Positions 28,006 through 64,000 of a stretch of 64,000 bases of DNA are shown piece after piece. Source of the stretch: Candidatus Poribacteria bacterium (lineage in GTDB: Bacteria; Poribacteria; WGA-4E; PCPOR2b). Under the pieces are notes generated by a model. It was not told the DNA's origin. It saw only the letters and a program-made list of their open reading frames with translations, and searched no databases. The position numbers and the translations under genes are program-made. The stretch lies in assembly GCA_965208425.1 (NCBI GenBank), contig OZ242335.1, forward strand, positions 188,544 to 252,543. Direction: 5' to 3'. Position 1 is the stretch's first letter; each line of letters starts with the position of its first letter.

Positions 28006-28481
28006 CCGCCGAACCAATGGTTTTCACGTTTCACGCATCAAAGGGATAGGCGAAGGGTCTCATAGTGGCTCAGAGGTTTCAATCGCTTTCACGTGCGATT
28101 GCCCTCGAGTTGGCTTTCTTCCCTTGACAGGACCCCTCCGCCGTGCTACACTAGGGCTTACTGACATCTGGGACATAATAACGATATGTTAAAACCTTGT
28201 CGAGCAATGGTGTGGCATTTTTGCGACGAGGGTGTGGCACAGTTTCGACAACCGCTTCATGAACATGACACTCCCTTTGAAATTACGGTTCATATAAAAA
28301 AACAGATGCAAAGTTAGATTGAGAAAGGGTTTTCCGAAAAAATCGGTTTTGGCACAATGCGTTTCGCACGGTTCGGGATTGCTTTGGTATCTAAATTGCG
28401 TATGGTTGAGGTGCCAAGTGATTTTTATTTGGCAACGATTGTCATCGGATCTTATTTGACACCGTTGAAATATCAACATAA

Positions 28482-28700
28482 CCTAAACAGGACTTACGCA
28501 GTTGAACGGTCAAAGCGAACACCAGAAACGGTCGCGCAACACTCCGGGCTGGTTGAGCCAGGACTATAGCGCAATAGTCTTGGTATCTTCGGCGATTCAT
28601 CGCCGCTAGACACCGTTACCAGCACCCGATGAATCCCCGATAAATCGGGATTAAGAAACGGGCAACTACAATCTGGAGTGCGTAAGTCCTACTAAACTAT
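28482..28700. mobile_element. MITE family 3 copy (~215 bp; caggacttacgcagttgaacgg ... ctggagtgcgtaagtcctac)
   Basis: TIRs. Internal hairpin ggcgattcatcgcc. Contains cccgataaatcggg. Confidence 0.55.
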
Positions 28701-28768
28701 TGTGTGAAAAAGTCATGTGTTCAAACTGAATCATATTCCAGTCCCGAAAGGGTATCAAGGAGAAGATC

Positions 28769-39041: not shown

Positions 39042-39317
39042 GGTTGTTGCTCCTTTCAAATTGAGAATGTGAAATTTTAGGCTGGAAACCGTCCGAAATC
39101 TGTAAGGACGCTTCCAAAACCAAGAGGAGATTGACAAATGAAAACACTGGAAACAACCCCAATGCTTTAGCGTTGGGTCAGATGGCGTAATTTTGATTGA
39201 TAGTGACATCAAAATATGGCATAATTCCTTTGTCCTTGTGGGAAAGTTCTACGCCACCGCCCGGTGGTGTCTCCCACACCTTTTAGAACAAGGTGTAAGG
39301 CCAAACAGGACACACCC

Positions 39318-40418
39318 ATGTTAAAAACTCACAAAATAGCCTTAGATACAAACAACGTCCAAGCGACACAATTCGCTCAACATTGCGGCTATGCTCGTGT
39401 TGCTTACAATCACGTTCTTGCTGATTTTAAGGCTGGTTTAGCCAATGACGAGTGGTATAGCCATATAGAGTTAAACAAACGTTTTAATTCTGTCAAGCGT
39501 GAGCAATATGAGTGGTGTGACGAGTTAAACCAACGTGCTGCTCACAATGCGATTTACTTCAACTTTCAGAATGCTGTTAAGCGTTGGCAGTCAGGTCAGG
39601 GTCGTTTTCCAAAGTTCAAGAAGCGTTCCAAAGGTCAAAGTTTCCAAGCGGATGCAGGTCGAGGCACAACTATTATCGAAGGACAGCGTATAAAACTACC
39701 CAAGATGGGTTGGGTTCGTATGTTCCAAACACTTCGACACCTCGGCACTATCGTCAAAGTTGTCATCTCAAAGACAGCTAACCGTTGGTTCGCTTCTATT
39801 ACTGTAGATACTTTCGATAACGATACTATTGTTGACAATCGCCATTTACCTGTTGTTGGTGTTGACGTAGGTATCAAGCACTTAGCTGTCACGTCCGAAG
39901 GTGTATATCACGAAAACCCCAAAGCCTTAAAGCGTTACCAGCGGAAGCTAAAACGGCTGCAACGTCAGTTAAGCCGTCGAAAGAAAGGGAGTCGGAATTG
40001 GCGTAAAACGAAAGCCAAGATTGCCAAGCTGCACTACCGAATCACCTGTATCCGACAAGATGCCCAACATAAGGCAACAACGGCTATCGTCAACGGTGCG
40101 AGTCGTATTGGGATGGAGTCGCTAAATGTTGCAGGTATGTTAAAAAACCACAGACTTGCAAAGGCATTATCGGACGCTTCGCTATCCAGTTTTCTCACGA
40201 TGCTTGCCTACAAATCAGAACGGATAGGTGTTAAAATTGTAGAGGCAGACACCTTCTACCCGTCGAGTCAGACGTGCTCGGCTTGTGGGGCAAAAGACAA
40301 AGCCCTGTCACTATCGGATAGGACGTACCATTGCAGTGATTGTGGTCATACACAAGACAGGGACCTTAACGCTGCAATTAACCTACGAAACGTCGCCATG
40401 GGACACACGGAGACTTAA
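39318..40418 (+). CDS. tnpB: TnpB (OrfB) RNA-guided endonuclease / IS605-family accessory protein
   Basis: RuvC-I VGVDVGIK, RuvC-II GMESLNV, zinc finger CSACG...CSDCGH, and RuvC-III DRDLNAAINL are all intact. Start at ATG 39318 (MLKTHKIALD) with an AGGA RBS. Confidence 0.85.
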   Translation: MLKTHKIALDTNNVQATQFAQHCGYARVAYNHVLADFKAGLANDEWYSHIELNKRFNSVKREQYEWCDELNQRAAHNAIYFNFQNAVKRWQSGQGRFPKFKKRSKGQSFQADAGRGTTIIEGQRIKLPKMGWVRMFQTLRHLGTIVKVVISKTANRWFASITVDTFDNDTIVDNRHLPVVGVDVGIKHLAVTSEGVYHENPKALKRYQRKLKRLQRQLSRRKKGSRNWRKTKAKIAKLHYRITCIRQDAQHKATTAIVNGASRIGMESLNVAGMLKNHRLAKALSDASLSSFLTMLAYKSERIGVKIVEADTFYPSSQTCSACGAKDKALSLSDRTYHCSDCGHTQDRDLNAAINLRNVAMGHTET

Positions 40419-43985: not shown

Positions 43986-45752
43986 ATGAAATGTCTATGC
44001 CCCCTTGCCCTTATCATTTTAATTCTTCTTACCCAGATATTACCCGCCGATGCGGCTCCAATCCGCAATATTATTGTCACAGGAAATGAAGCGTTCCCTA
44101 GCGAGAAAATTCTCAGCTTAATGCAATCGCAAGTTGGTGATGACTATGATCCCGATCTGCTTCGCCAAGATTTTGAATGGATTGCCGGTCATTACCAAAT
44201 ACACGGATTTCAATTCGCTCGAGTTGATCCAGAGCAGCTTGTAGCCCTAGAATTCACTGATGGTGTTTATCTCAGAATCTACATCGACGAGGGAAGGATT
44301 GGGCGAATTACAATAAAAGGAAATAGCCGCACCAAAACTGATGTAATCAGACAAGAGCTGCTTTTTGAAAGAGGCGATGTTTACATACAGGACGATGAGT
44401 TGGAAAGTGAACGTATCCTACGCCGAAAGCCGTATTTGGGAAGCGCGGAAATTCTTGCAACGCGGGACCCGGAAACCAATCTTATCTTAATAGAGGTCGA
44501 AGTCACAGACCTATGGACTTTTTTTCCTGCCTTAGATGTCCCTGCCTTCAGCAAAGATAAAACGGGTTTTTTAGTTGCACTGTCGGATTCAAATGTATTC
44601 GGTTCTGGGGACAGTGGTCGCATCCGTTACGAACAGATTCGTGAAGAAGGGGAAGATCCACGTCATCTTATCAGTGGTCTCTATAGGATATTCCGCCTGT
44701 TTGATTCACATTGGGAGTTCGATGGCGTGTATACCCAAAAACGGGAGGGGGTTTCATGGGACGCGAGTATAAAACGGCCCTTGTATTCGCTTGAGACCCG
44801 CTGGAGTGCGGAGTTTACTGCCGCCGAATCTGTAGATGAAGTCCGCTGGTATGAGCAAGGCGTAAAAACAGCTGTCTTTGAACGAAGCAGTCAATCGGAG
44901 TCCGGACAGATTATCCGTTCCTTTGGTGATCGTCGTCGACAGACACAGATTGCGCTCTGGATGGTTTCTGAGCGTGCACATTTCGATGAGATTGAGAGGT
45001 TGCCGTCTGCCACCGCTAGCTTTCAGGACAGAAACACAAAGATGGTTGGAGTCTCGCTCGGTCACAGAAAAGTCAACTTTATCCGCACACGTTTTCTCAA
45101 TAAGATGGGTCGTGTTGAAGATATCGGAGTCGGATATGGGTACGGTCTGTCAGTCGGTCGCGCTCACCCGTTTTACGGTGCCGATCGCAGAGAAACAAGG
45201 GTGAGTCTGTTTCTCAATGCCTCCCAAGCATATCGAGATCTACTTTTCGTTAATGGCCGCACCGGGGTCACAACCCGTTTTGTTGGGCATGAAGAAGAGG
45301 ATGCGGTGTTTCAGGCGAGCATCAAAGCAGTACGCAAAAATCTCTTTCTGCGTCAAACCCTTGCTGCACGGATTTCTGCAGAGATGCAATTCGGACTTGC
45401 GGGAGAACAGCAGGTGCTTCTCGGTGGAAACAGTGGATTGCGTGGATATGATCCCCGACAATTCAGTGGGACCAAAAGGATTCGCCTCAACCTCGAAAGC
45501 CGAATGATTTTCTGGGAGCACTCGTTAGTTGTGATTGGGTCCGCAATTTTCGCTGATGTCGGTTATATTTGGGAAGGGGATACCTCCGATGTAGGGATTC
45601 CCAAGCGGAGTGTAGGATTTGGGTTGCGGTTGGGTCTACCCAAACTGAGCGGATCGCGAGTCTATCGTGCTGATTTGGCGTACCCGTTGGATGGCCCGGA
45701 AAAGCCATCGCTTATACCGGTTTTCACCTACGCGATCGGGCACGCCTTTTAG
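43986..45752 (+). CDS. Omp85/BamA-TamA-family outer-membrane protein (POTRA + surface-antigen beta-barrel)
   Basis: Signal peptide. POTRA-like IKGNSRTKTDVIRQEL. C-terminal ...YAIGHAF with terminal Phe. Confidence 0.8.
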   Translation: MKCLCPLALIILILLTQILPADAAPIRNIIVTGNEAFPSEKILSLMQSQVGDDYDPDLLRQDFEWIAGHYQIHGFQFARVDPEQLVALEFTDGVYLRIYIDEGRIGRITIKGNSRTKTDVIRQELLFERGDVYIQDDELESERILRRKPYLGSAEILATRDPETNLILIEVEVTDLWTFFPALDVPAFSKDKTGFLVALSDSNVFGSGDSGRIRYEQIREEGEDPRHLISGLYRIFRLFDSHWEFDGVYTQKREGVSWDASIKRPLYSLETRWSAEFTAAESVDEVRWYEQGVKTAVFERSSQSESGQIIRSFGDRRRQTQIALWMVSERAHFDEIERLPSATASFQDRNTKMVGVSLGHRKVNFIRTRFLNKMGRVEDIGVGYGYGLSVGRAHPFYGADRRETRVSLFLNASQAYRDLLFVNGRTGVTTRFVGHEEEDAVFQASIKAVRKNLFLRQTLAARISAEMQFGLAGEQQVLLGGNSGLRGYDPRQFSGTKRIRLNLESRMIFWEHSLVVIGSAIFADVGYIWEGDTSDVGIPKRSVGFGLRLGLPKLSGSRVYRADLAYPLDGPEKPSLIPVFTYAIGHAF

Positions 45753-49829: not shown

Positions 49830-49847
49830 AATCCGCTGTGGCCCCTG

Positions 49848-50035
49848 CATTATAGTGAATTCTAAAAGTGAATAGACACTTTCGCCCCTTACCTGGTAGG
49901 TGCGGTTTTCAACCGCACCGAATAGGCGCAGTTAGAAACAGCGCCTACCAAACGGTGGAACGGTAGTTTCGTTTTCCTAACTCCCCCGGTTTGGAGTGTT
50001 TCATTAATTCTAAGGTCCACTATAATAATGGTAGG
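49848..50035. mobile_element. MITE family 1 copy, full length, inverse orientation
   Basis: ctaaaagtgaatagacactttcgcccc...ggtttggagtgtttcattaattctaaggtccactata. Confidence 0.7.
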
Positions 50036-50382
50036 GCTTACGCCCTTCAGTAGGGAACGCAGATGCCGCTCTCCCAATTCTATCGTCGGGACTTCGGGGG
50101 ATCTGCGTTTCCTACGAAACAGAACCGGTGCCTAAGAACTGATTGTAGCTGCCCGATTCCTCCCCGATAAATTGGGATTCAGAGCAACGGGCGTTGTGAG
50201 TTGTGTTATGCGGTGATCAAACGCCGAACTACAAGTTGAAAACTCTCGGAACGGAGTCGAAGCGTCCCCCGGTCCCGACTCGTCGGGACCGATCCGAATC
50301 AAGAATGGAATCGGGACTCAAAAATCAGGATCGGAACGGAGGTTTGGAGTGTTCAACTATTGATGCAATATGATTTCCCGGC

Positions 50383-50760
50383 AACGTGCGTGAACTGGAA
50401 AACGCGATTGAACGCGCCGTTCTGCTTGAGACCACAGAACAGTTACAACCAGGTAACCTGCCTCGAAAGATTCTGTCAACGGTCTCTTCCAAACCTATCT
50501 TCTTTCGCTCATGTTAAGATTTAGTGCAAAGAAACCGAGTTTTTTCGGCAAAACTCGGTTTCTCTTCGTGCTTTGCACTTTCTTTTTATATGAGCCTCTT
50601 CTTTTTCCGTGACCCAACAGAAATCCCGCTGTTTCAAGAGGTGGAACGTCAAACGTTGGCTCACGCGCTCAAGGTGATGGACAATAATATCACAAACAAA
50701 GGCCGCCCAAGCCTTGAACATTGACCGATCAACTCTTTATCGGAAATTGAAGTTGTATCA
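50383..50760 (+). pseudogene. remnant of a sigma-54-dependent (NtrC-family) activator C-terminus, split by a MITE2 insertion and frameshifted
   Basis: My translation gives YDFPGNVRELENAIERAVLLE... before the MITE. After it, in another frame, ...AAQALNIDRSTLYRKLKLYQL (Fis-type HTH). No AAA+ domain is present upstream. Confidence 0.5.
50505..50592. mobile_element. MITE family 2, short form, inserted into the NtrC-like remnant
   Basis: cgctcatgttaagatttagtgcaaagaaaccgagttttttcggcaaaactcggtttctcttcgtgctttgcactttctttttatatgagc. Confidence 0.6.
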
Positions 50761-50982
50761 ACTTGTCGAGTCGGATTAAAGTCCCCAAGAACTTGGCTTC
50801 AAACCGATTTGTCATTCCGTGAAACATGAAGATCGGGGAATGGAATCATCTCTTCACAGCACAATGTACCAATAAGTCTTCTCGATTGTCGTAAAATGCG
50901 AAAAGTAGTATAGTATTCTGCGACAACCCCGACTCTATCTAGCTTTATCACAGACTTTCCGCCGCTATCCTCCCACTTAATC

Positions 50983-51017
50983 GGTTTCAACTGTCGCATT
51001 TTGCGACAGTTGAAACC
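50983..51017. repeat. perfect 16-bp-stem hairpin (ggtttcaactgtcgca ttt tgcgacagttgaaacc)
   Basis: Seen directly. No flanking T-tract on either strand, so probably not an intrinsic terminator. Confidence 0.6.
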
Positions 51018-51505
51018 CATCTAATCTCACGCTATCTGCCCGCCTGTATCCTTCAAAGACAAGCCTATCCAGGGATTTCTCAGGTTTCGCCCTCGTTCGA
51101 TAAGCATTGGCACAGTTTATGCTTATAAGTCCAGTAATCCTTCCCACGGCAGGGGTCCACTTCACCATCCTCGGTGTTGCCTGTTGCTCCCCTTGGACGG
51201 GGATTGGGTCCGATAAATCGGGACTAGGGAGGATTGGGAGGGTTTCCCATTTATACAATATTGAAGTTTATCTTTAGGCGGAGTATCACGCTACAATCTT
51301 GGCTCAATTTTACGAGGGGACGCAGATGCAAAACAGATGCGTCGATAAAATAGAAGGCTCAGCACGCTTTCTTAACATGAACCAAATAGAAAAGCCCTTC
51401 GCTATTTTCTCAGTTGACCGGGTATATCCCGAGCAAGTCTGTTTGTTACCCTCGTCGTGTCTGCACCCTCCGATATTGATACAAATGTTAACGTCTGTTA
51501 CTTTA

Positions 51506-51519
51506 CCCCCCCCCCCCCC
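51506..51519. repeat. C14 homopolymer tract
   Basis: Fourteen consecutive C in the ORF-poor region about 450 bp upstream of the T9SS cargo gene at 51972. Confidence 0.7.
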
Positions 51520-51971
51520 GATTCACACTCGTTAAATATACACTTCAAACTAAACAATCTCAGCAGTTACTGTCGTTTTGTCTACTTCCCCCGTACACTG
51601 TCCCGAACAGAACGTCACGTTCTGCCGCTGTTGGCAATCTGTGCTCACCCCCGATTCCTGTCACATATCGTCGAGGATTCCCGATTTTCCCCTTTACAAG
51701 CCGCTTTACTCACCCACGCTTTCAATTCTATTGCAGTGTTAAGGCTCCGCCCATATCTCTACATGCACAAAACTGTTGATTTTGGAAAATCAATCTATGG
51801 CAAGGGCAACCACGAATTTCTGAATCCCGATGCGTCGGGGTATTGTGCCTGCCCTAAATACTCAGAAACAAACGTCTAACCTTTACCCAATTATATGTTC
51901 CAATTACAAACCAATGAAAGGTTCAATGGGGTGTCCTACAGGGCACCCCGCTTTTAACCAAAAGGAGATTT

Positions 51972-54941
51972 ATGATGTTTAAGTCAAAAATGATTGTGTC
52001 AATTTTCGCGGTGGTGTGGTTGATATATGGTTTCCAAAATATTAGTTATGGGCAGGAGGCAGTTACAGGTGAGATTACAGAGTGTTCGGGGACTCGGCGG
52101 GCCTGGCCATTAGAGACTTGGGTAGACGTAACAATACGAGGTACTGTCCAGGCTACGAGAAATGTGACGAGTTTACAGATTACCGGATCTGCCAACGGAA
52201 AGTCTGTTGGGATTGATTCGATGGGGCAACTTTCAGCAGGTCAATCCAGGAATTTTTCAATTACCGGGTTTATTGTTACCGATGAGAATACACTGGATTG
52301 TAGTGTTAGCCTTGAGTGGATTGAATTTACGCAGCCGGAACCTGATCCACCTGAAAACAACGAGCCGCCCGATGGAAATACAGGCTCACCGCCCAACAAC
52401 GGACAGTCCGGTGGAACGACATACACCTCTGGTGAAGTGATTCCAACGCTTCCTTCCGGGGGCTCCTCGGTAGTATTCCAAGGTGGATTCAGATCAAGAA
52501 ATGCGCGGTTCAGACTTTCTGGAGGGGTATACACTATTAATTTTGAGAATGGAGGGTTTATAGAAACGGGTGGAATTACATACACCTGCATCACTTCTGG
52601 TGGGTGCACAGTTAGAAATGGACGTGTGACTCAAGGAACGATTCAGGTTGGTGGCACGGCTCCACCGCCACCTGTAGAGGAATCGGACTTAGCAGTAGAC
52701 CAACCGACGGTGAGTAAAAGCACTTTAGATCCAGGTGAACGTTTTACGCTATCTACCACCGTCAGAAACAATGGTTCCGGCAGGGCGGGTTCGACGACGT
52801 TGCGCTATTATCGGTCCAGTGATAATAGGATTTCGACCGGTGATACAGAAGTCGGCACGGACAGCGTTAGCGCACTTAGTGCAAATCGGAGTAGTGATGA
52901 AAGTATCACGGTCACAGCCCCAACATCGCCAGGAACCTATTATTACGGTGCGTGTGTTGAATCGGTTTCGGATGAGAGTAACTCTAACAATAACTGCTCT
53001 GCTGCGGTGCGTATCACAGTAAAACAGTTAAAATCGGACTTAGTAGTGGATCGACCGACGGTCAGCAAAAGCACGTTAGCCCCCGGTGAGAACTTTACGC
53101 TGTCTGCCACCGTCAAGAACAATGGAGAAGCAAGGGCAGGTTCGACGACGTTACGCTATTATCGCTCGACCGATACCACGATTTCGACCGGTGATACAGA
53201 AGTCGGCACGGACAGCGTTAGCGCGCTTGATGCGAATGGGAGCAGTGCTCAGAGCATTACACTCACAGCCCCAACATCTCCTGGAACATACTATTACGGT
53301 GCGTGTGTTGAATCGGTTTCAGATGAGAGTAACTCTAACAATAACTGCTCTGATGCGGTAAGCGTCACAGTGAATCAGCCAACGCTAAGTGCCTCAACCC
53401 CGCCACGATTAACAGAGGCGGTGCTTGATAGCAGTGAAGTGACACTGACGATGACAGATGCCACTTACGACCAATCCCTGTCCACAATCAGCAACGCCAT
53501 AACGGTATCCGGTATTGTAGGTGTTACGGTTGGTACGGTCAGGCGGGTAAACGACACGGAGGTTACAGTCACACTTGCCTTCGACGGAACAGATTTTGAC
53601 ACCGATGCGACCCTTACCTTCAGTGTGGGTGCAGATGCTATAGCAAACTACGATGGCTCCGCCCTAACAGCACAAGTCCCCGTCACCGCAATCAAAGGAT
53701 TTGATTTTGATTTGTCTGTGCCGGCGGGCATCAGCATGATTCATGTGCCTTTGAAGGTAACAAAGGTTGACGGGGTAGCCAAGACGATTGAATCCATCTC
53801 CGACCTCTACGCCGCGCTCGGTGGGGACGACGCTGTCATTTTTCTTATGACCTATGACTCCCAACAAGGTTGGCTCGGCTATTGGGGTACTTCGGATACA
53901 GGCACCGCCGCCGATAGAACTTTGACTGATGACATGGGGATTTATGCCCGGCTGATTGTCCCGGTTTCGGTTCAACTCACCGGCGAGACGCTGGGGACTA
54001 TAGGCAGCGGGACTATCACCTTAAATCAAGGACTGAACCTTGTGGGGCTCCCCTTGCGAGACTCAAGGATAACCCGTGTAAGTGACCTGTTCACGCTCGA
54101 TGGGATTCGTGGCAACGTCTTTGGGATTTCGCTCGCTGATGATGGAGAGTTTAAGACTGTCGGACAGGCAGGGGATCCGGGCGATATTCCCGTTACTGGT
54201 GGACAAAGTTTTATCCTGACCGCTCAGAGATCGGCAACGGTCACTATTTCCGGTGAAGCATGGACTAACGTTTCAGAGACAGCTGCCGCCCCATCGTTAT
54301 CCCTGAAGGGCATTGAGGTGGAGGATACGACGCCTGTTTTAGCGTTGAGGGGGACGATTGTTGATGAACAAAGGGACTTAAACCAGTCAGGCTTCCGTGT
54401 GACTGTCAAGAACCTTTCAACCGGCAGATCTATCACCGGCATGACCAAAGCGGAAGGTGATGTGTATAAGCTCACCGTCGTTGACATAGAAATGGGTCAA
54501 GCCGCTGCGATTGGCGATGTCCTTGAAATCTCCGCTCAATCTCCCAATCCGTTAATCGGTGTAGAGCCGTTACGTTATACCTTGACTGCGGAAGATGTCA
54601 AGCGGAGCCTCATTCAGTTGCCAGAACTGGTTGCCTATGAGATACCCGCAGAGACCCAACTGTTGCCCAACTACCCCAACCCGTTCAATCCGGAAACATG
54701 GATACCGTATCGGTTGGCAGAGGACGCTTTCGTGACATTGACCATCTATGATCAGACCGGTCAAGTTGTCCGCTCCCTTGACGTGGGATACCAGACTGCG
54801 GCGGTCTACGAAAGTCGATCCAAGGCAATCTATTGGGACGGTAGAAACGAGTTTGGTGAAACCGTGGCAAGTGGAATCTATTTCTACCATCTGTCGGCGG
54901 ACGATTATTCTGCGACACGGAAGATGCTAATTTTGAAGTAG
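51972..54941 (+). CDS. large secreted protein with two tandem CARDB domains and a T9SS C-terminal sorting domain
   Basis: AAGGAG SD. Signal peptide. Two ~105-aa near-identical CARDB-like repeats (..PTVSKSTL.PGE.FTLS.TV.NNG..RAGSTTLRYYRS.D..ISTGDTEVGTDSVSAL...ESNSNNNCS). C-terminal NYPNPFNPETWIPY...GIYFYHL tail. Confidence 0.8.
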   Translation: MMFKSKMIVSIFAVVWLIYGFQNISYGQEAVTGEITECSGTRRAWPLETWVDVTIRGTVQATRNVTSLQITGSANGKSVGIDSMGQLSAGQSRNFSITGFIVTDENTLDCSVSLEWIEFTQPEPDPPENNEPPDGNTGSPPNNGQSGGTTYTSGEVIPTLPSGGSSVVFQGGFRSRNARFRLSGGVYTINFENGGFIETGGITYTCITSGGCTVRNGRVTQGTIQVGGTAPPPPVEESDLAVDQPTVSKSTLDPGERFTLSTTVRNNGSGRAGSTTLRYYRSSDNRISTGDTEVGTDSVSALSANRSSDESITVTAPTSPGTYYYGACVESVSDESNSNNNCSAAVRITVKQLKSDLVVDRPTVSKSTLAPGENFTLSATVKNNGEARAGSTTLRYYRSTDTTISTGDTEVGTDSVSALDANGSSAQSITLTAPTSPGTYYYGACVESVSDESNSNNNCSDAVSVTVNQPTLSASTPPRLTEAVLDSSEVTLTMTDATYDQSLSTISNAITVSGIVGVTVGTVRRVNDTEVTVTLAFDGTDFDTDATLTFSVGADAIANYDGSALTAQVPVTAIKGFDFDLSVPAGISMIHVPLKVTKVDGVAKTIESISDLYAALGGDDAVIFLMTYDSQQGWLGYWGTSDTGTAADRTLTDDMGIYARLIVPVSVQLTGETLGTIGSGTITLNQGLNLVGLPLRDSRITRVSDLFTLDGIRGNVFGISLADDGEFKTVGQAGDPGDIPVTGGQSFILTAQRSATVTISGEAWTNVSETAAAPSLSLKGIEVEDTTPVLALRGTIVDEQRDLNQSGFRVTVKNLSTGRSITGMTKAEGDVYKLTVVDIEMGQAAAIGDVLEISAQSPNPLIGVEPLRYTLTAEDVKRSLIQLPELVAYEIPAETQLLPNYPNPFNPETWIPYRLAEDAFVTLTIYDQTGQVVRSLDVGYQTAAVYESRSKAIYWDGRNEFGETVASGIYFYHLSADDYSATRKMLILK

Positions 54942-55336
54942 GTCATACAGTTTGATCTATAGCCAGAACAAATAGCATATAGGAGTTACACCCTTTAGTT
55001 TGTAGTAGCGCGTTCATTGCGCGTTCTTCCCTCCCCCCGATTCCGATTCTTCCCGATGGATCCCCGATATGATCGGGACAGGTTCCGACCTGTCGGAATG
55101 CTCGGAACGGCACGGAACGAAGAAGCGTGAACTCCGCTTTGCGGAGAAGTTCCCGTGACCGGGACGGGAGATAGAGGGGGAACGGGCGATAAATCGCCCT
55201 ACTACAAACCTATGGATTTAATTATAGTTGCCCGATTCATTGGACTTTGAGCGTTCAAGTGCATAAGTCCTATCAAGTGTCAAAGTTACCAGCTAACCGA
55301 AAACGGATTTATCCGTTCAAAACCGAGGAGGATGTT

Positions 55337-57217
55337 ATGAATCTCATGAAAAAGAGGCTGTTTTTTGGCTTCAAATTCGTTTTAATCTTTGCTCTGTTTC
55401 TATCAAACAGCCATGGCACATATATTCCCCAAACTGTTCTCGAAGGGCATACAAATTCGGTCAATAGTGTATCGTTCAGTCCTGATGGTAGTATGCTCGC
55501 CAGTGGAAGTAGTGACAAAAGGATTCGTCTTTGGAATGCCGCTACAGGCGTGCTCCTCCACACTCTCACGGGACATGAGGGCGGTGTCAAGAGCGTAACG
55601 TTCAGTCCTGATGGTAGTATGCTTGTCAGTGGGGGTGATGACAACACGATTCGTCTTTGGGATGTCGCCACCCGTAAGGAACTGAAGACCCTTGAGGGGC
55701 ATACGACTTCGGTCAGGAGCGTAGCGTTCAGTCCTGATGGTAGTATGCTTGCCAGTGGGAGTGATGACAACACGATTCGTCTATGGGATGTTGCTACGGG
55801 TGAGGAACCCAAGATACTGAGGGGAGAATGGTGGAATGATCGTATTGAATCCGTAGCGTTCAGTCCTGATGGTAGTATGCTTGTCAGTGGGGGTGCTGAC
55901 AATACGATTCGTCTGTGGGATGTCGCTACGGGTAAGGAACTAATGACCCTCACGGGGCATAGGTCTCTTGTCTATAGTGTAGCGTTCAGTCCTGATGGTA
56001 GTATGCTTGCCAGTGGGAGTGCTGACAATACGATTCGTCTGTGGGATGTTAGCACCGGCAAGGGACTGAATACCCTTGAACTATCTAGTATTTGGCAGGG
56101 TTATAGTGTCTATAGTGTAACGTTCAGTCCTGATGGTAGTATGCTTGCCAGTGGGAGTGATGACAACACGATTCGTCTTTGGGAGCTACCGTCCACCCAT
56201 GTTAGCATTACGCCTTCCCCGGTGGAGTCACCAGCAGTGGGTGAGCAGTTGGTCATCAACGTTAGTATTAAAGGAGGGAAAAACGTGCGAGGCTATGCGG
56301 TCAACGTAGGGTATAATCCGTTCACACTCCGCTATGTTTCCCACACCCGCGGCGATTATCTGCCCGGCAACGTATTTCCCGGGCCAGAGATACTTCCGCC
56401 AGACGAGATGTTTAATAGAAATGATGCTTTCGTGATTTTTACTATGGTTTCACCGGATGGGGTTAAAAGTGGTGACGGCACCCTTGCCACTATCACTTTT
56501 GAGGTTGTTGCTCGAAGGGCATCTACGCTTGAGTTATACGTAGCACTCTCTGATAGTGATGGCGAACGGTTGGGGCATTGGTCGAAAGATGGAAGCGTGA
56601 TTGAACCACCGTGGGATGTCAATGGGGACGGTTTCGTGAACCTCTTGGATTTGTCGATTGTTGCCTCCCGGTTTGGGGAGGGTGGGGACAATCGAGCTGA
56701 TGTTAATCGGGATGGGGTTGTTAATATTACGGACCTGATTTTGGTCGCCAGCGGAATGTATGGCGAGCTAGCCGCGCCCGCCGCCCATTTACAGACGGAG
56801 CCAACGCTTGCCCCTGCAGCGGTGAAAGGGTGGCTCGCTCAAGCACAGGGGTTAGATCTCACGGATGCAAGGTTACACAGGGGCGTTGCCTTCCTCGAAC
56901 AGCTGCTCGCGGTGTTGACCCCGAAAGAGACGCAACTGTTGGCAAACTATCCGAATCCGTTTAATCCTGAGACGTGGATACCTTACACGCTATCCGAGTA
57001 CAGCGACATAAGCATCCGGATCTACGATAGTAAAGGACAGGCAATCCGACAGCTATCACTCGGAATGAAACCAGCCGGTGTATACATTGACAAGGATTCC
57101 GCCGCGTATTGGGACGGAACAACGGAGACAGGGGAAAAGGTGTCAAGCGGTATTTACTTTTACTCGCTCTCCACTGGTTCAGCAATGTATACCAAGAAAA
57201 TGATCGTCGTCAAATAG
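55337..57217 (+). CDS. secreted WD40-repeat / cohesin-like / dockerin-repeat protein with a T9SS C-terminal sorting domain
   Basis: GAGGAGG SD before ATG 55337. Six units of the form VNSVSFSPDGSMLASGS.D.TIRLWD. Cohesin-like GDGTLATITFEVVA. Dockerin pair DVNGDGFVNLLDL / DVNRDGVVNITDL. NYPNPFNPETWIPY tail. Confidence 0.8.
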   Translation: MNLMKKRLFFGFKFVLIFALFLSNSHGTYIPQTVLEGHTNSVNSVSFSPDGSMLASGSSDKRIRLWNAATGVLLHTLTGHEGGVKSVTFSPDGSMLVSGGDDNTIRLWDVATRKELKTLEGHTTSVRSVAFSPDGSMLASGSDDNTIRLWDVATGEEPKILRGEWWNDRIESVAFSPDGSMLVSGGADNTIRLWDVATGKELMTLTGHRSLVYSVAFSPDGSMLASGSADNTIRLWDVSTGKGLNTLELSSIWQGYSVYSVTFSPDGSMLASGSDDNTIRLWELPSTHVSITPSPVESPAVGEQLVINVSIKGGKNVRGYAVNVGYNPFTLRYVSHTRGDYLPGNVFPGPEILPPDEMFNRNDAFVIFTMVSPDGVKSGDGTLATITFEVVARRASTLELYVALSDSDGERLGHWSKDGSVIEPPWDVNGDGFVNLLDLSIVASRFGEGGDNRADVNRDGVVNITDLILVASGMYGELAAPAAHLQTEPTLAPAAVKGWLAQAQGLDLTDARLHRGVAFLEQLLAVLTPKETQLLANYPNPFNPETWIPYTLSEYSDISIRIYDSKGQAIRQLSLGMKPAGVYIDKDSAAYWDGTTETGEKVSSGIYFYSLSTGSAMYTKKMIVVK

Positions 57218-57409
57218 TATCAAATGACCTGATGATGGTTGGAATGCCGATGTTCATTGGCTTCCAGCCATCACGCATGAGCGGGTTGGCTTGGCTTGGT
57301 GAGCATATTCTTCGAGAAATTGATGCGTTTGGATATACGCATAACCCAGTATAGCAAAAAGGCTATCGGGTGTCAAATCCCTCTTCAAGTCACCGTTGGT
57401 GCGATTTTA

Positions 57410-58318
57410 TCATTGTTTGCCTCCTGTCGGTTTGGAACTGGCTAGGGTGGTGGTATCTTTGCAGCGTTGTGATTCGGTTGCTAAGTTAGCGTTGATGTCC
57501 TTGAGTAGATGTTGGGGTATCAGGTCAAGATATTGAGAGATGACGCGTTTGGAGAGCCGGGTAATCTGCGAGATTTTGTCAATATCGTCAGTGGCGGTGC
57601 GAACGGTCTTGACAATTTCATAATCGCGAATGTATCGGTCAACGGCTTCTTTGGAGTGTTTGGTCTTTGCAGCAATAGTGGGGGTGAGATGTCCTTGTAG
57701 ATAGAGGGTAACAATCTCTTTCTTATGGGTAATGGCACCCGATAAGTCATGGATATTGCCGCGTGTAGGCAAGAGTTTACCACTCGTTTTTTGCCATTCA
57801 TTGACATAATCGCTGACCACAGCATCACAGACATTGAGCAATACAGCCAAGTCGAGTTGTGTCAATAATGCGCCTTGGTCATAGGCTTGATAACACCAAC
57901 GGACCAATCGATTAATTCGTAGTTGACGAGCGGTCAATCCATTGCGAAAGGATTCAATATCCTCATCAGCGAGGTAGGTCAGAATAACCGGCTTCATACG
58001 GGTTTTAGCGATGGACTTTCCCTTTTGTGGATATTCATCAATAGGCACAGCCATCCAGACGAGTTGTCCATAACTGAGCATTCGCTCATTAGGTATCTGC
58101 TCCCCTGTGGCAAGTTTCTCAAGGGGTAAGGTAATCACAAAATAGTCCTCAACGGTTTTGACAATGTCATCGACAATCGCAGCGGCAGTGACTTCGCCTT
58201 TGTCGTACCCGTAAGAATTGATAAAGCGATGAATCAGCAACTGGCGCAGTGACTTGTCATTGATGCGTCTGAATTTCTTCTCGTTGACTTCGGTTCGGGT
58301 CAATGTTTTGCCCATCAA
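57410..58318 (-). CDS. double-HTH DNA-binding protein, paralogue B (resembles DUF1670-type proteins; assignment tentative)
   Basis: 302 aa. The conserved core shared with its neighbour, ...QAYDQGALLTQLDLAVLL...HKKEIVTLYLQGHLTPTIAAKTKHSKEAVDRYIRDYE, is predicted from the sequence pattern to form two helix-turn-helix units. Confidence 0.65.
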   Translation of the reverse strand: MMGKTLTRTEVNEKKFRRINDKSLRQLLIHRFINSYGYDKGEVTAAAIVDDIVKTVEDYFVITLPLEKLATGEQIPNERMLSYGQLVWMAVPIDEYPQKGKSIAKTRMKPVILTYLADEDIESFRNGLTARQLRINRLVRWCYQAYDQGALLTQLDLAVLLNVCDAVVSDYVNEWQKTSGKLLPTRGNIHDLSGAITHKKEIVTLYLQGHLTPTIAAKTKHSKEAVDRYIRDYEIVKTVRTATDDIDKISQITRLSKRVISQYLDLIPQHLLKDINANLATESQRCKDTTTLASSKPTGGKQ

Positions 58319-59124
58319 TTGTCCCCCTTTTTCGCATCAACTGGTTCCGGGTGAAGCAGTTGAGTCATTCGCTCGGTTTGTTGATACTCATTGTATAGCA
58401 ACAGATACTCCCGAATCAGCCGGTCCGATAGATGGCTTATCAGCCGTATCTGTCCCTTGGCAAAGCCTTGACTATGGAGGCTGGCTACCTGTGTAAAGTC
58501 ACTCAGGTATCGCCAGATCGCTCGCTCGGTGTGGTTAGTCTTTTGCTCTATTTTGGTGAACTGATACCCTTTGAAGTAGAGTTCGAGAATCTGAGTCTTA
58601 TGAGAAACGCCAGGGCCCATGTCGTGTTTGGCACCCCGGGTCATCACAAAATAACCGTCCTGTTTCAACTGGCGAATATCGCGTTTGACCGTGGCTGGAC
58701 TGGTCGTTAAGAGTACCGCTAAATCTTCATAGCTGAGTAGGGCATCTTGGTCATAGGCTTGTTTGGTTAAGCGGAGGATCCGATGCCGTCTCAGACCTGA
58801 AAGTCCGTAATTGGCTAACACCTCAACGTCGGCTTGCATATCATTGAGAGTGAGTCGGCAGGATACCTTTTTCGCTAAGGCGATGTGTTTACCGGCTGGT
58901 TCGTCGGCTGCGACTACCTCGTAGCAGATTTGACCCGATGTCAGTTCAATTTCGGCGTGTTGGGCAAAGTAGGAAGCAATCTGTTTGTAGTAGGCTTCGG
59001 CAATGATAGGCATTAGATTAAAGTCTGATGATATTTTCTGAATAATCGCTGCACGGGCAGTCTTGGATTGTAGGCGGTTGACACCGTAGGCTCTATCGGT
59101 TTGTGGCTTCATATAGACCTCCAT
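58315..59124 (-). CDS. double-HTH DNA-binding protein, paralogue A (DUF1670-like, tentative); stop overlaps the start of paralogue B (ATGA)
   Basis: 269 aa. ...QAYDQDALLSYEDLAVLLTTSPATVKRDIRQLKQDGYFV...HKTQILELYFKGYQFTKIEQKTNHTERAIWRYLSDF. Translational-coupling overlap with the downstream gene. Confidence 0.65.
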   Translation of the reverse strand: MEVYMKPQTDRAYGVNRLQSKTARAAIIQKISSDFNLMPIIAEAYYKQIASYFAQHAEIELTSGQICYEVVAADEPAGKHIALAKKVSCRLTLNDMQADVEVLANYGLSGLRRHRILRLTKQAYDQDALLSYEDLAVLLTTSPATVKRDIRQLKQDGYFVMTRGAKHDMGPGVSHKTQILELYFKGYQFTKIEQKTNHTERAIWRYLSDFTQVASLHSQGFAKGQIRLISHLSDRLIREYLLLYNEYQQTERMTQLLHPEPVDAKKGDN

Positions 59125-59272
59125 CAGTCGAGTGCAGTTGATGGCAATGCCATCTCCTTGTAGTTTAACTCATGGGGTCATTTGATACAAACTATAAATA
59201 GTATCAAATAACCAAACGGCAGTAGGGGGTAAGATTCACTTTTACCCTCTACTGCGAAATAGGGGGTAGATT

Positions 59273-59821
59273 ATGCATGTGGATAGCAGAGTTAGAAAAT
59301 GTATAGTGGTTTTATTGACTTCTGTTTTTATTGTAATGATTGTCGGTTGTAGTGTGATTAACCCAGAGCCTCCTCCAATCGTTTGGAATGAGGGAAAGGA
59401 AAAAAAAGACGAACTCTTGCATGAGGCAGCTGCCGCGGCAGAACAGGATGTCAATATTAACACAGCGGGGTGGGTGCTAGGTGGCACGCTTTCCTCTGCC
59501 CTAGGAACCGGTCTTGGCACAATAATTGCGGCTGCGACTTTGGAAGGCGACGAATGGGGTTGGGATCGCTCTGAGTCGGTGATGATATTAACAGGTTTCA
59601 TAGGTCCTCCCATAGTGATGCTTATGTACGCTGATAGACCTGTACCTGTGGTAAAGATTCCACCGGAGCGGTTGATCGGTAAATCGCCTGAGTATATTGA
59701 GGCTTATACCCATTTCTATAGGGAAAAGACTCGCGTTGCTCGGACGCAAGCGGGATTGTTCGGCTGCGTTGCGACTCCCATTTTATTGGGTTTATCGGGA
59801 TTGTTGAATGTGCTTGATTAG
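59273..59821 (+). CDS. hypothetical lipoprotein (signal ..IVGCS)
   Basis: 182-aa ORF with a GGGGGT RBS. Lipobox present. Gly/Ala-rich segments. Confidence 0.5.
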   Translation: MHVDSRVRKCIVVLLTSVFIVMIVGCSVINPEPPPIVWNEGKEKKDELLHEAAAAAEQDVNINTAGWVLGGTLSSALGTGLGTIIAAATLEGDEWGWDRSESVMILTGFIGPPIVMLMYADRPVPVVKIPPERLIGKSPEYIEAYTHFYREKTRVARTQAGLFGCVATPILLGLSGLLNVLD

Positions 59822-59916
59822 AAGTAGATTGTAGGTCGAGATTCACATCTCGACACCAAACTTCCAACCAACATCTCGATTGCACGTTGCAATTGTAGAC
59901 TAATAAGGAGGAGTTT

Positions 59917-60054
59917 ATGATGAAAATGTTAGTTGCAAATCGAAAAACCTTATCAATTCTACCTTTCTTTGGTATTATTATGCTTGTTTGCTTTATATTA
60001 CCTACGGTTCCTGTCTTTGCGAGTGATGCTTTTGAGGTTGGAGCCAAGAGTTGA
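59917..60054 (+). pseudogene. 45-codon signal-peptide-only ORF; paralogous copy of the 5' end of the T9SS cargo gene at 61048
   Basis: aggaggagttt ATG ATG AAA ATG TTA GTT GCA AAT CGA AAA... parallels 61041-61075 ggagttt ATT ATA AAA ACG TTA GTT GTA AAT CGG AAA. It then terminates after ...VPVFASDAFEVGAKS. Confidence 0.35.
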
Positions 60055-60149
60055 ACATGATCAGAATCATCAAAGGGGGTTCCGATGAACTCACCAAAAA
60101 AGATAGGGATTATTGACCTTACCACCAATAGCAGGCCCCGCTCTTTATA

Positions 60150-60290
60150 TACAGGACTTACGCACTTTAGATGGTAGTTGCCCGATTTATCGGGCGTATC
60201 GGGGCAGGGATGCCCCTCCCACACCCCCCTCAGTCCCCCCGCAAGCAGGGGGAAGGGCTTTGACCGCTCGGCTGCGTAAGTCCTAATATA
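60150..60290. mobile_element. MITE family 3 copy
   Basis: caggacttacgcacttt ... ggctgcgtaagtcctaa; internal cccgatttatcggg and ccccccgcaagcaggggga. Confidence 0.5.
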
Positions 60291-60319
60291 GACATATTCT
60301 GCATTCCAACTACGCAAGC

Positions 60320-60774
60320 GTGATGCCTCAAGCGATCGGTGTTTGGTGTGAGGAGGCAGGGCACGATGTAACCCTGGTATGCTATACCGGTTTTGGGGAT
60401 GTGACAGAAGACTTGCCCGATAATCTGGACTTAGCGTTCATAGGGACTTTTACACAGGGTGCACAACTTGCCTATGCCTTAAGTGCCCGCCTTCGATCAG
60501 AAGGCACTATCACCGTATTGGGCGGTCCTCACGTGCGTTGCTATCCAGAAGATGCACAGCAATACTTTGATTACGTTGTTGGCTTTACTGATAAGGCTGT
60601 CATCCAAAGGACCTCGGTCCCCTGTGGGAGTGGCTTCCCAAGGGCGCATTGTATTCGGATCCGAATGCCTATCTCAAAGCGGAACACGCCAATGACACCC
60701 AAATTAAGGAGGTGCCCCTCAATCAGGGGAGGACAAATTTTATCGGAATGCTCGATAGATCGGGGGCATAGACT
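60320..60774 (+). pseudogene. remnant of a B12-binding radical-SAM protein (B12-binding domain only; 5'-truncated at MITE3, frameshift near 60610; no CxxxCxxC core)
   Basis: ...LDLAFIGTFTQGAQLAYALSARLRSEGTITVLGGPHVRCYPEDAQQYFDYVVGFTDKAVIQ matches the cobalamin-binding domain of B12-rSAM enzymes. The reading frame then switches (...DLGPLWEWLPKGALYSDPNAYLKAEH... in frame -1) and ends at 60774. Confidence 0.45.
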
Positions 60775-61047
60775 TGATGCCTACGCATCAGGTATTCTAT
60801 CCTGAAAATCCTTAAATCCCCCGATAAGATCTCCGATTTCATCGGGACAGGCGGGATTTCGCGTAGTTTACCCCGATTTATCGGGGCTCAACCTGACAAT
60901 TCTGATTCAGATGGTCGGGGATCTCTTTGGGTTAAAAATCTCAGGAACTGTTGCGGAAGATGCTGATTTTGAAATGACGTTGCGTCCATTTTTCTGCCCA
61001 TTGGCAAACAATCCGATTGTGCACTGCAATGGATAATCAAGGAGTTT

Positions 61048-64000
61048 ATTATAAAAACGTTAGTTGTAAATCGGAAACGCATCACATTCATTGTGTTGAT
61101 GATGTTATCTCTATTCGCTCCACAAATATGGGGAATCGCGGACGCCGACGGGCACCTCATTGAGGGTCCCTGGCTCTGGATGATTGTTCCGTCGGCTGAT
61201 GTTTCACCGAAGATAGAATTCCCCCAAGAAGAGATAGAAGTCCCCCAAGGACTGATGCCCTCCCTGTGGGGAGAGATTAAGACTGATGTTTCGACAGAAA
61301 CAGATTCCCCAGAGATATATTTTCTAGATATAGATTCCCTTGCTGCTGCGAGTAATAGTACCGTTAGGGAATTCTCTGTTGCCCAAGGCAGTGCGATCAC
61401 TGCTGGGGATACCGTTGGATTGTCAAGATGGACAAGTAGTATTATTCCCTACCAAAAGAAAGAATGCGAAGAGTTCAAGAGCGTTAGTTGGTTTTTTATT
61501 TTTGGTGGCGGCACTGAAACTAAAACCGAATGTTGGAATAATAGTCTCAACGCGGTGGTCGATTTACTTGGATTGGGGAGAGATGCTAAGAAAGGACATA
61601 CCGCGTATGCGTTGATTTACCTCATCTCGCCCCGCGAGCAAATCAGCACCATGGGTGTTCAGAGTGGGGACGCACTCCACGTATGGCTCAATGGCGATGT
61701 GGTTTACGGACAGGCTGCGACTCACTTAGATTGCCGAAAGGTAGACATATTCGGTGCGCCCGATCACAGGACCTGCATCCCCGATCCACGGGATTGGGAG
61801 CGGAAACCGCACTATTTTCCCGTGATGCTTAAAGCCGGTCCCAACCTGCTATTGGTGAAAGTCAAACAGCACGGAACGTATTGGGATCTGTGGGTTGACC
61901 TTGATGCAGATTTCAGCACGACAACTGGCGCCCTTTCAATGATTCAAGCTTCGTCTCCGTTGGGGGAGTTGACGTTGGATGGTAACGTTATCACCTTGAG
62001 ACTAAATAGTAGATCTTTTGAGCCAGATATTACCATCCTCGAAGATGCGCTGACGGTATCGGGCATCCCCGGTGTAACGATACAACCGTCTAGTGTCCAA
62101 CGAATCAGCGACATAGAAGTAATGTTTACCCTAAGTTTTGACCACACCGACATCGACGGAGATGCTGAGCTCACCTTCGCCGTCGGTGACGGTGCGATAA
62201 CAAACTATCAAGGTGCTGCGTACAGCATAGAAAGCCGTGTTGCCGGCATTGAAGAATCAGTTGACGTTTCAGTTACATCTCCGTTGGGGGAGTTGACGTT
62301 GGATGGGAGCGTTATCACCCTGACGTTAAGTGGCAGAACTCTTGAGGCAGATATTTCCACAATCCGCGATGCGCTGACGGTATCGGGCATCCCCGGTGTA
62401 ACGATACAACCGTCTAGCGTCCAACGAATCAGCGAGACAGAAGTAATGTTTACCCTAAGTTTTGACCACACCGACATCGACGGAGATGTTCAGCTCACCT
62501 TCGCCGTCGGTGACGGTGCGATAACAAACTATCAAGGTGCTGGATTGCGCAGCAGCAAGCGTGTTGAGTCCACTGAAGAATCAGTTGACGTTTCAGTTGC
62601 ATCTCCGTTGGGGGAGTTGACGTTGGATGGGAGCGTTATCACCCTGACGTTAAGTGGCAGAGTTTTTGAGCCGGATATTTCCACAATCCGCGATGCGCTG
62701 ACAGTATCGGGCATCCCCGGTGTAACGATACAACCGTCGAGCGTCCAACGAATCAGCGAGACAGAAGTAACGGTTACGCTTGATTTCGACAGGACCCCAT
62801 TTATTGATGTTCCCCCGCCGCTGACTGTCAGCGTGGGCACCGGTGCGATCTCAAACTATATGGGGGAGGCCGTTACCGTAGAAGTTTCTATCGTATCCTC
62901 CAGAGACGAACAGACTAGCATTTATTGGACAGATCCCCTAGATAATACAATCTACAACGGCAACTTAGACGGTCCAAACGTCGAAGCCTTCGTCGCAGGA
63001 TTGGGGAATCCAACCGGTATCGCCTTAGACGCGGCGGATAGCAAGATGTACTGGACAGACGCGGGGACGAAAAAAATCCAACGTGCGAACTTGAACGGTT
63101 CAAACGTCGAAGACCTAGTTGCCCAAGGATTAAGCGGTCCAAGAAGCATCGCCTTAGATGTCGCAGCGGGTAAGATGTACTGGACAGACGCGGGGACGAA
63201 AAAAATCCAACGTGCGAACTTGGACGGTTCAAACGTCGAAGACCTAGTTGCCCAAGGGTTGGGGCGTCCATTCGGTATCGCGTTAGATATAACAGGCGGC
63301 CAGATGTATTGGACAGACAACGGGACAGACAAGATTCAGCGATCGGATTTGGACGGTTCAAACGTCGAAGATCTCGTCACAGGATTGGGAAATCCATTGG
63401 GCATCGCGTTAGATATAGCAGGCGGCAAGATGTATTGGACAGACAACGGGACAGACAAGATTCAGCGATCGGATTTGGACGGTTCAAACGTCGAAGATCT
63501 CGTCACAGGATTGGGAAATCCATTGGGCATCGCGTTAGATATAGCAGGCGGCAAGATATATTGGACAGACGCGGGGACGAAAAAAATCCAACGTGCGAAC
63601 TTGGACGGTTCAAACGTCAAAGATCTCTTCACAGAATTAGTCTCTCCAGCCGGCATTGCCATTGTAATAGATTCTTCCTCCCCAGTGACACAGGAGGCTG
63701 TGGACCATGACCCAGTGGCACAGGAGGTTGTGGACCATGATGCCATTGTTGATGTCCAAGAGTTCGTGCTCTTGCCAAACTACCCCAATCCGTTCAATCC
63801 AGAGACGTGGATACCGTATCACTTGGCAACGGAGGCAGATGTTACGTTGACTATCTACGACACAAGTGGACAGGTCGTTCGGCTGTTGAAGCTCGGACAT
63901 CAAGCTGCGGGACGGTATCAGAGCCGAAGTCGTGCTGCTTATTGGGATGGCAGAAACCAGTTTGGAGAGGCGGTAGCAAGCGGTGTTTATTTCTATCGCC
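61048..64000 (+). CDS. very large secreted protein: 3 x ~105-aa tandem repeats + six-blade YWTD (LDL-receptor class B) beta-propeller + T9SS C-terminal sorting domain; 3' end beyond window
   Basis: Open frame from 60973 to the window end. AAGGAG at 61039-61044. There is no canonical in-frame start before GTG 61093 / ATG 61099, but a proper signal peptide (IIKTLVVNRKRITFIVLMMLSLFAPQIWG/IADA) exists only if translation starts at ATT 61048 or ATA 61051. YWTD units (K.YWTD.GT.KIQRA.LDGSNVEDLV). LLPNYPNPFNPETWIPY...GVYFY tail truncated at 64000. Confidence 0.75.
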   Translation, partial: MIKTLVVNRKRITFIVLMMLSLFAPQIWGIADADGHLIEGPWLWMIVPSADVSPKIEFPQEEIEVPQGLMPSLWGEIKTDVSTETDSPEIYFLDIDSLAAASNSTVREFSVAQGSAITAGDTVGLSRWTSSIIPYQKKECEEFKSVSWFFIFGGGTETKTECWNNSLNAVVDLLGLGRDAKKGHTAYALIYLISPREQISTMGVQSGDALHVWLNGDVVYGQAATHLDCRKVDIFGAPDHRTCIPDPRDWERKPHYFPVMLKAGPNLLLVKVKQHGTYWDLWVDLDADFSTTTGALSMIQASSPLGELTLDGNVITLRLNSRSFEPDITILEDALTVSGIPGVTIQPSSVQRISDIEVMFTLSFDHTDIDGDAELTFAVGDGAITNYQGAAYSIESRVAGIEESVDVSVTSPLGELTLDGSVITLTLSGRTLEADISTIRDALTVSGIPGVTIQPSSVQRISETEVMFTLSFDHTDIDGDVQLTFAVGDGAITNYQGAGLRSSKRVESTEESVDVSVASPLGELTLDGSVITLTLSGRVFEPDISTIRDALTVSGIPGVTIQPSSVQRISETEVTVTLDFDRTPFIDVPPPLTVSVGTGAISNYMGEAVTVEVSIVSSRDEQTSIYWTDPLDNTIYNGNLDGPNVEAFVAGLGNPTGIALDAADSKMYWTDAGTKKIQRANLNGSNVEDLVAQGLSGPRSIALDVAAGKMYWTDAGTKKIQRANLDGSNVEDLVAQGLGRPFGIALDITGGQMYWTDNGTDKIQRSDLDGSNVEDLVTGLGNPLGIALDIAGGKMYWTDNGTDKIQRSDLDGSNVEDLVTGLGNPLGIALDIAGGKIYWTDAGTKKIQRANLDGSNVKDLFTELVSPAGIAIVIDSSSPVTQEAVDHDPVAQEVVDHDAIVDVQEFVLLPNYPNPFNPETWIPYHLATEADVTLTIYDTSGQVVRLLKLGHQAAGRYQSRSRAAYWDGRNQFGEAVASGVYFYR

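Follow-up and report, generated by a model that had tools for sequence, protein, structure and literature searches.

How do the bacterial symbionts of sponges export the eukaryote-like proteins in which they abound? The question is an old one, and few sponge symbionts encode recognized secretion systems for these proteins (Robbins 2021). It is posed anew by three genes, P1, P2 and P3, that lie at the end of a 64-kb stretch of a Candidatus Poribacteria chromosome (64,000 nucleotides of contig OZ242335.1, assembly GCA_965208425.1, positions 188,544 to 252,543; hereinafter, the window) and encode proteins composed of a putative N-terminal signal peptide, an assortment of mostly repetitive modules, and a C-terminal domain that belongs to the type A sorting domain family of type IX secretion systems (T9SS). 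An earlier note on this DNA, made from the sequence without any database search, described a cluster of three giant proteins of the T9SS cargo type. The three are indeed neighboring open reading frames (ORFs) on the plus strand, but the cluster is a loose one, with P3 located 3.8 kb from P2, and the proteins, at 626 to about 1000 amino acids (aa), are large but not giant. The reading that we favor, and that we consider fairly probable as a whole, is that the modular 'eukaryote-like' proteins encoded by the island to which the three genes belong are cell-surface or extracellular proteins of a sponge-associated Candidatus Poribacteria bacterium that would be exported via the Sec pathway, cross the outer membrane in a tail-dependent manner and end up displayed at the surface.

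Domain architecture of the three proteins

What are these proteins made of? P1 (51972-54941, plus strand) is a complete ORF of 989 aa. In its translation, a putative Sec-type signal peptide (recognized by eye, as are those of P2 and P3) is followed by an N-terminal region and, further downstream, by two CARDB domains (about 52686-53351; 86 bits, cut-off 22.7) that are encoded by a 351-bp tandem repeat, a single copy of an immunoglobulin (Ig)-like module of approximately 108 aa (about 53364-53681) that is 51% identical to the repeat of P3, a middle region of approximately 320 aa, and the C-terminal tail domain (about 54672-54938). The N-terminal region and the middle region yielded no match in the Pfam search.

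P2 (55337-57217, plus strand; a complete ORF of 626 aa) combines a signal peptide with six WD40 repeats (about 55433-56215; 278 bits), a cohesin domain (about 56219-56527; Pfam Cohesin, 32.6 bits against a cut-off of 24.1), a type I dockerin with two calcium-loop segments (about 56615-56746; Dockerin_1, 37.5 bits against 22.9), a linker and the tail domain (about 56948-57208). Both D-x-N-x-D-G loops of the dockerin are present in the translation (DVNGDGFVN... and DVNRDGVVN...). The cassette that consists of the cohesin, the dockerin, the linker and the tail (342 aa) has at least 7,004 homologs at E<=1e-5, one of which is named by NCBI a 'T9SS type A sorting domain-containing protein [Candidatus Poribacteria bacterium]'. 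The best 120 of these homologs cover nearly the full cassette at 36-62% identity, and the modules located N-terminal of it are WD40, LDL-receptor class B (LDL-B) or leucine-rich repeats (LRR), or there is none; neither glycoside hydrolases nor carbohydrate-binding modules (CBM) were found as partners among these 120 proteins. The cohesin-dockerin pair of P2 is not a cellulosome, although it may act as a docking system.

P3 starts at 61048 on the plus strand and runs past the end of the window at 64000, which comes approximately 16 codons before the expected stop, so that more than 984 aa of the protein can be read. Its signal peptide lies behind a non-canonical start (ATT at 61048 or ATA at 61051), to which we return below. 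It is followed by a domain of approximately 260 aa (about 61132-61917), three Ig-like modules of approximately 108 aa each (61954 to about 62900), a YWTD/LDL-receptor class B region (about 62955-63640) and the tail domain (63781 to the window end). The Ig-like module produced no Pfam match above cut-off. In the YWTD region, six motifs are visible by eye in the translation and Pfam Ldl_recept_b detects five (171 bits), enough for a six-bladed propeller. The N-terminal domain, likewise without a match in the Pfam search, defines a family of 202 proteins in which it is often fused to a dockerin and a tail; in some of the distant members, Pfam detects PA14. The AlphaFold2 model of this domain (pLDDT 74) shows weak similarity (TM about 0.25-0.3) to PA14-containing glycosidases and a flocculin, and because these structural matches are weak, assignment of the domain as PA14-like or lectin-like is only tentative.

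Repeats are also apparent at the DNA level: Tandem Repeats Finder picks up those that encode CARDB, WD40, Ig-like and YWTD modules alike, including, in P3, a 126-bp unit in 5.4 copies and a 324-bp unit in at least 2.5 copies. Thus, the passenger architectures that the earlier note had read from the translations, namely, two CARDB domains in P1, six WD40 repeats followed by a cohesin and a dockerin pair in P2, and three tandem Ig-like repeats with a YWTD propeller in P3, were recovered, with the CARDB, Cohesin, Dockerin_1, Ldl_recept_b and TIGR04183 profiles all scoring above their cut-offs and the Ig-like repeats evident as such.

The C-terminal tail domain

The feature that unites these otherwise dissimilar proteins is the tail. 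All three, as the note had it, end in a domain of the Por-secretion-tail type: the TIGR04183 profile (T9SS type A sorting domain; cut-off 23 bits) scores 32.9 bits in P1, 34.9 bits in P2 and 23.5 bits in P3, where the tail is incomplete. The corresponding Pfam profile PF18962 (Por_Secre_tail; cut-off 27) scores 28.0 and 30.8 in P1 and P2, respectively, and falls below the cut-off, at 17.9, in P3, the tail of which is truncated at the window end. The three tails share the pattern LL(P/A)NYPNPFNPETWIPY...G(I/V)YFY, and a single residue differs among them in the LL(P/A)NYPNPFNPETWIPY stretch.

This domain is constant in length, in position and at its very end. Exactly 90 codons separate the start of the NYPNPFNP motif from the stop in each of the 14 complete poribacterial tails that were compared, and the C-terminal residue is lysine in 165 of the 168 tails collected, the commonest end being ...KMLIRK. 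In database searches, the tail profile retrieved 290,179 representatives of 50%-identity clusters at E<=1e-3 and, at E<=1e-30, 5,528 such clusters that represent the tail subtype considered here; among the matches listed, in proteins with a single match, that match reaches the last residue. To judge from these searches, conservation is stronger in the tail than in the passengers to which it is attached.

The fold tells much the same story. The AlphaFold2 model of the P2 tail (pLDDT 93.6) is all-beta, and its best Foldseek match in the PDB is the C-terminal domain of Porphyromonas gingivalis PorU (6za2; E 7.5e-5; TM 0.66-0.71); the further matches are Ig domains of FlgD, substrate tails of the Flavobacterium johnsoniae T9SS and PorZ, and the matching entries include 8glk_D, 8gl8_D and 8gl6_D (F. 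johnsoniae substrate tails in the translocon) as well as 5m11. The Pfam FlgD_ig profile (cut-off 27) scores 32-35 bits on the tails, that is, equal to or slightly above Por_Secre_tail. By profile, position and fold, then, the tail is a member of the T9SS type A family, with a subtype that leans towards FlgD_ig.

The route of export

What could such a domain do in Poribacteria? The scenario that we favor involves four steps. The N-terminal Sec signal peptides would direct export of the proteins to the periplasm; those of P1 to P3, by eye, combine a positively charged n-region, a hydrophobic core and small residues ahead of a plausible cleavage site. The fixed-length C-terminal beta-sandwich of approximately 90 aa would then signal crossing of the outer membrane and possibly attachment, in the manner of T9SS type A tails. 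Outside the cell, the CARDB domains, the WD40 and YWTD propellers, the Ig-like modules and possibly PA14-like lectin modules would bind ligands of the host or of the matrix, and the cohesin and dockerin modules might dock paralogs together, giving rise to larger surface assemblies.

Several observations weigh against this scenario. 'T9SS cargo' is a functional claim and therefore requires the T9SS machinery, and no T9SS component, the core proteins SprA, PorV, PorU and PorK/L/M/N or GldK/L/M/N included, is encoded in the 64-kb window. No Por structural genes were found in poribacterial single-cell genomes (Kamke et al., 2014, PMC3909097), and the T9SS genes have been reported, in a 2024 paper, to be absent outside the phyla that make up the Fibrobacteres-Chlorobi-Bacteroidetes (FCB) group. 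When the tail profile is compared by sequence with solved structures, FlgD is matched at E 2e-4 and the PorU tail at E 0.13. Moreover, some proteins of 1,300-4,900 aa (P0374-P0397) contain up to 15 tandem internal copies of the domain, and because of these internal repeats in large proteins, the tail domain cannot be regarded as inherently a sorting signal. Neither ATG nor GTG nor TTG is found ahead of the P3 signal peptide, so that this protein might not be produced in the form in which we read it. Finally, secretion and surface location of P1-P3 are predictions from the sequence and the modeled fold. Separately, we considered the FGE-family protein of the window as a candidate GldK/PorK and rejected it (138 bits against a GldK cut-off of 350).

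So could the tail have nothing to do with a T9SS? Under this alternative, it would serve a different, undescribed route of export or anchoring at the outer membrane, or else would be merely a structural C-terminal Ig-like module. The reported lack of Por structural genes in the single-cell genomes and of T9SS genes outside the FCB phyla can be cited in its favor, as can the paucity of known secretion systems for eukaryote-like proteins among sponge-symbiont lineages (Robbins 2021), the parity between the FlgD_ig and Por_Secre_tail scores, and the occurrence of the domain as internal repeats elsewhere. The tail, however, is strictly terminal, has a fixed length and ends in a conserved ...K-COOH on thousands of passengers that differ from one another, and for these reasons resembles a sorting signal rather than a structural spacer. 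Furthermore, fold and profile match those of bona fide T9SS tails, and the genomes behind the reported absence of the machinery were incomplete, with annotation of the 2013 era. On balance, we regard T9SS independence of the tail as the less likely reading, but as a serious one.

A related reading concerns the lineage and not the tail itself: Poribacteria, with many tail-bearing proteins per genome, would lack a canonical T9SS and might possess either an undescribed outer-membrane pathway or a T9SS that is too divergent to be recognized. This is a real possibility, albeit not one on which we would insist. If it is borne out, the undescribed pathway or divergent T9SS would supply what is missing, namely, a way for sponge symbionts to display their eukaryote-like proteins to the host. 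Be that as it may, P1-P3 lead back to the question with which we started, and the tail provides a clean handle on it, being of fixed length, nearly invariant and present on thousands of passengers; in addition, Poribacteria chromosomes are by now available in complete form.

A variable island in turnover

Returning to the favored scenario of surface display, is it compatible with the state of the genes? Downstream of a conserved GFO/IDH gene, the gene content differs between the window and its relatives. In L081, a second Poribacteria contig that is syntenic with the window, the GFO/IDH gene is followed by a gene that encodes a trypsin-LRR-tail protein, the P1 ortholog, several tail-bearing genes and gene fragments, and a DDE transposase; in the window, it is followed by 2.1 kb of ORF-poor DNA (49830-51971) and then by P1 and P2. 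This ORF-poor stretch thus fills the place that the trypsin-LRR-tail gene occupies in L081.

The same stretch includes the 1.2 kb that the earlier note called a leader. The 16-bp perfect hairpin (50983-51017), which is unique, and the C14 tract (51506-51519) that the note mentioned are both present, but the DNA is decayed and contains the frameshifted 3' fragment of a gene for a sigma-54 activator (about 50371-50780; AAA_lid_14, 40 bits; HTH_8, Fis-type, 35 bits). This fragment is split by a palindromic insert of approximately 90 bp (50507-50595) with imperfect terminal inverted repeats and a perfect 14-bp hairpin inside, which looks like a miniature inverted-repeat transposable element. A segment of approximately 400 bp (51384-51781) shares 68% identity with the sequence that precedes the P1 ortholog in L081, and the C14 tract lies within it, about 450 bp upstream of P1. 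In L081, the poly-C tract occupies the same aligned position (about 9560) and comprises about 11 residues, compared to 14 in the window; the difference could reflect slippage-prone phase variation, or an error or drift in homopolymer length. The Rfam search of the ORF-poor stretch upstream of P1 returned no match, and promoter- and terminator-like sites upstream of P1 occur at chance level, without excess; given that, in addition, the hairpin lacks a T-run, we rejected the possibility that this stretch is a regulatory RNA or a terminator. Another ORF-poor stretch of approximately 2 kb, without any ORF longer than 100 aa, is located at 26785-28768. Because gaps of this size occur elsewhere in the window, long non-coding or decayed regions are not special to the DNA upstream of P1.

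Gene remnants and two DUF1670 genes on the minus strand occupy the interval between P2 and P3. The DUF1670 genes (57410-59124) overlap each other and encode proteins with helix-turn-helix matches (Pfam scores of 204 and 205 bits) that have no relative among solved structures. A pair with 90% and 87.5% aa identity to this one is found at 7825-9527 of another Poribacteria locus, L082, where it sits between two other tail-bearing genes; the DNA of the two loci is 82% identical over a 2-kb block, and in both the pair faces away from the cargo gene located downstream of it. A dedicated pair of regulators and a mobile module are both conceivable. The DUF1670 pair is separated from P3 by a second ORF-poor stretch, of 1.9 kb (59125-61047). 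This stretch contains a truncated ORF (60320-60805), the match of which to the B12-binding domain, at 22 bits, does not reach the cut-off of 32; the ORF is probably what is left of a B12-binding radical-SAM gene. As for mobile elements elsewhere in the window, a TnpB/IS605 OrfB-type gene (39264-40418; OrfB_IS605, Cas12f1-like TNB and HTH domains) lies amid housekeeping genes.

The picture is that of the end of a variable island of shuffled and duplicated cargo-type genes in turnover, not of an operon with a leader. Might the island, then, be partly decaying, with P3 and possibly its neighbors already pseudogenes? Apart from the pseudogene remnants upstream of both P1 and P3, such a possibility is brought to mind by the start of P3. 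The first ATG of P3, at 61099, would delete the charged n-region of the signal peptide if used, and no protein identical to P3 was found among the matches listed for its homologs. In L081 (13645-19864), P3-like genes are split, with the N-terminal domain, the YWTD region and the tail on separate ORFs, around the DDE transposase, which hints at frameshifts or at disruption of these genes in the L081 genome. However, both P1 and P2 are intact, and their putative signal peptides look good, P3 reads on without interruption for over 984 codons across DNA that is highly repetitive, and a strong AGGAG sequence (61040-61044) is positioned 3-6 nt ahead of the ATT/ATA codon. The start of P3 might be either a rare non-canonical one or inactivated; partial decay of the island as the explanation of the locus appears quite improbable.

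The organism

The remaining question is whose proteins these are. The aconitase of the window is matched at 94-97% identity by seven Candidatus Poribacteria records, several of which are closed chromosomes of 5-6.8 Mb, the best match among Poribacteria metagenome-assembled genomes being 97% identical; the next-best matches come from Verrucomicrobiota, at 59-62% identity. P1 is 100% identical to a protein (P0002) encoded on a contig of 6,807,964 bp (NCBI, ENA). Synteny with L081 extends over window positions 42-50 kb and involves the BatA/VWA, POTRA, aldo-keto reductase, FGE and GFO/IDH genes, with 77-97% protein identity for the latter four, and the P1 ortholog of L081 occupies the same position as in the window. 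From this single marker and the synteny, we conclude that the window is a Candidatus Poribacteria chromosome.

The guess of a Poribacteria-like lineage in the earlier note was, accordingly, correct. The impression of a genetic background like that of the Planctomycetes-Verrucomicrobia-Chlamydiae (PVC) group is probably explained by the Verrucomicrobiota being next in line for aconitase, and the hint at an unusual or poorly sampled lineage has to be abandoned, given that at least 10 related Poribacteria genomes were found, several of them complete chromosomes. NCBI taxonomy lists Poribacteria under candidate phyla and not within FCB, and phylogenomic analysis places them in neither PVC nor FCB but in the vicinity of Hydrogenedentes and Aerophobetes (Kamke et al., 2014, PMC3909097).

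Tails with the same NYPNPFNP start are found in two loci of Balneolaceae (L058 and L066), bacteria that have a T9SS, a likeness that speaks for the favored reading of the tail. Together with the fact that T9SS-type tails are typical of FCB bacteria, this similarity might be taken to mean that P1-P3 are foreign, being a mis-binned or chimeric FCB fragment or a recent horizontal acquisition that is uninformative on the host lineage, but these genes share an uninterrupted sequence with housekeeping genes whose identity to those of Poribacteria is 94-97%, the GC content does not change across the region, L081 has the same flanking genes together with the P1 ortholog, the ...NPETWIPY subtype of the tail is present at five further loci of Poribacteria, and a family member is assigned to Candidatus Poribacteria by NCBI, so that the synteny and the abundance of the tail family in Poribacteria effectively refute a foreign origin, to which we assign next to no probability.

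One further gene of the syntenic block deserves mention. It encodes a 588-aa POTRA/Omp85-like protein (43986-45752) that scores 76 bits against a BamA cut-off of 297 and adjoins the BatA/VWA gene, the pair being kept in synteny with L081. We considered this protein as a secretion partner and dropped the idea, the conserved syntenic neighborhood being all that speaks for it.

Comparison with known systems

Are P1-P3 new in kind? Poribacterial eukaryote-like proteins, in particular those with WD40 repeats, that carry TIGR04183 tails have been described already; the supplementary table of the same study includes proteins with a signal peptide and WD40, Cohesin, FlgD_ig and TIGR04183 matches, and dockerin genes, as well as LDL-receptor class B repeats in tandem, are also discussed there for Poribacteria (Kamke et al., 2014, PMC3909097). 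We found no literature beyond this study that links Poribacteria or Hydrogenedentes with T9SS or gliding. P1-P3 come from the same phylum and have the same architectures as the previously described proteins, with nothing different in kind; the difference is that they are further paralogs, embedded in an island of a complete chromosome along with a DUF1670 pair and pseudogene remnants. Eukaryote-like proteins with T9SS-type tails in Poribacteria are, therefore, a published phenomenon, of which P1-P3 are a further, well-resolved example.

With the clostridial cellulosomes, P2 shares Pfam Cohesin and type I Dockerin domains, the latter with two calcium-binding loop segments. Unlike in cellulosomes, the cohesin and the dockerin of P2 reside on one polypeptide, the pair is fused to WD40 repeats and not to glycoside hydrolases or CBM-containing scaffoldins, and the host is a diderm.

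The FlgD Ig-like domain (PF13860) is the best match of the tail by sequence among solved structures and has a comparable fold. In contrast to that domain, the poribacterial tail has no flagellar context, invariably comes last in putatively secreted multidomain proteins, and is conserved both at its NYPNPFNP start and at its ...K-COOH end.

A functional parallel would be the T9SS type A cargo of Bacteroidota, such as RgpB of P. gingivalis or RemA and NucA of F. johnsoniae. The poribacterial host phylum is outside FCB, and the poribacterial tail subtype is, by sequence, closer to FlgD_ig. P1-P3 resemble this cargo in the combination of a putative signal peptide with a tail of approximately 80-90 aa, and the model of the poribacterial tail, a 7-stranded Ig-like beta-sandwich that passes TIGR04183, superposes on the T9SS tails of PorU, PorZ, NucA and RemA.

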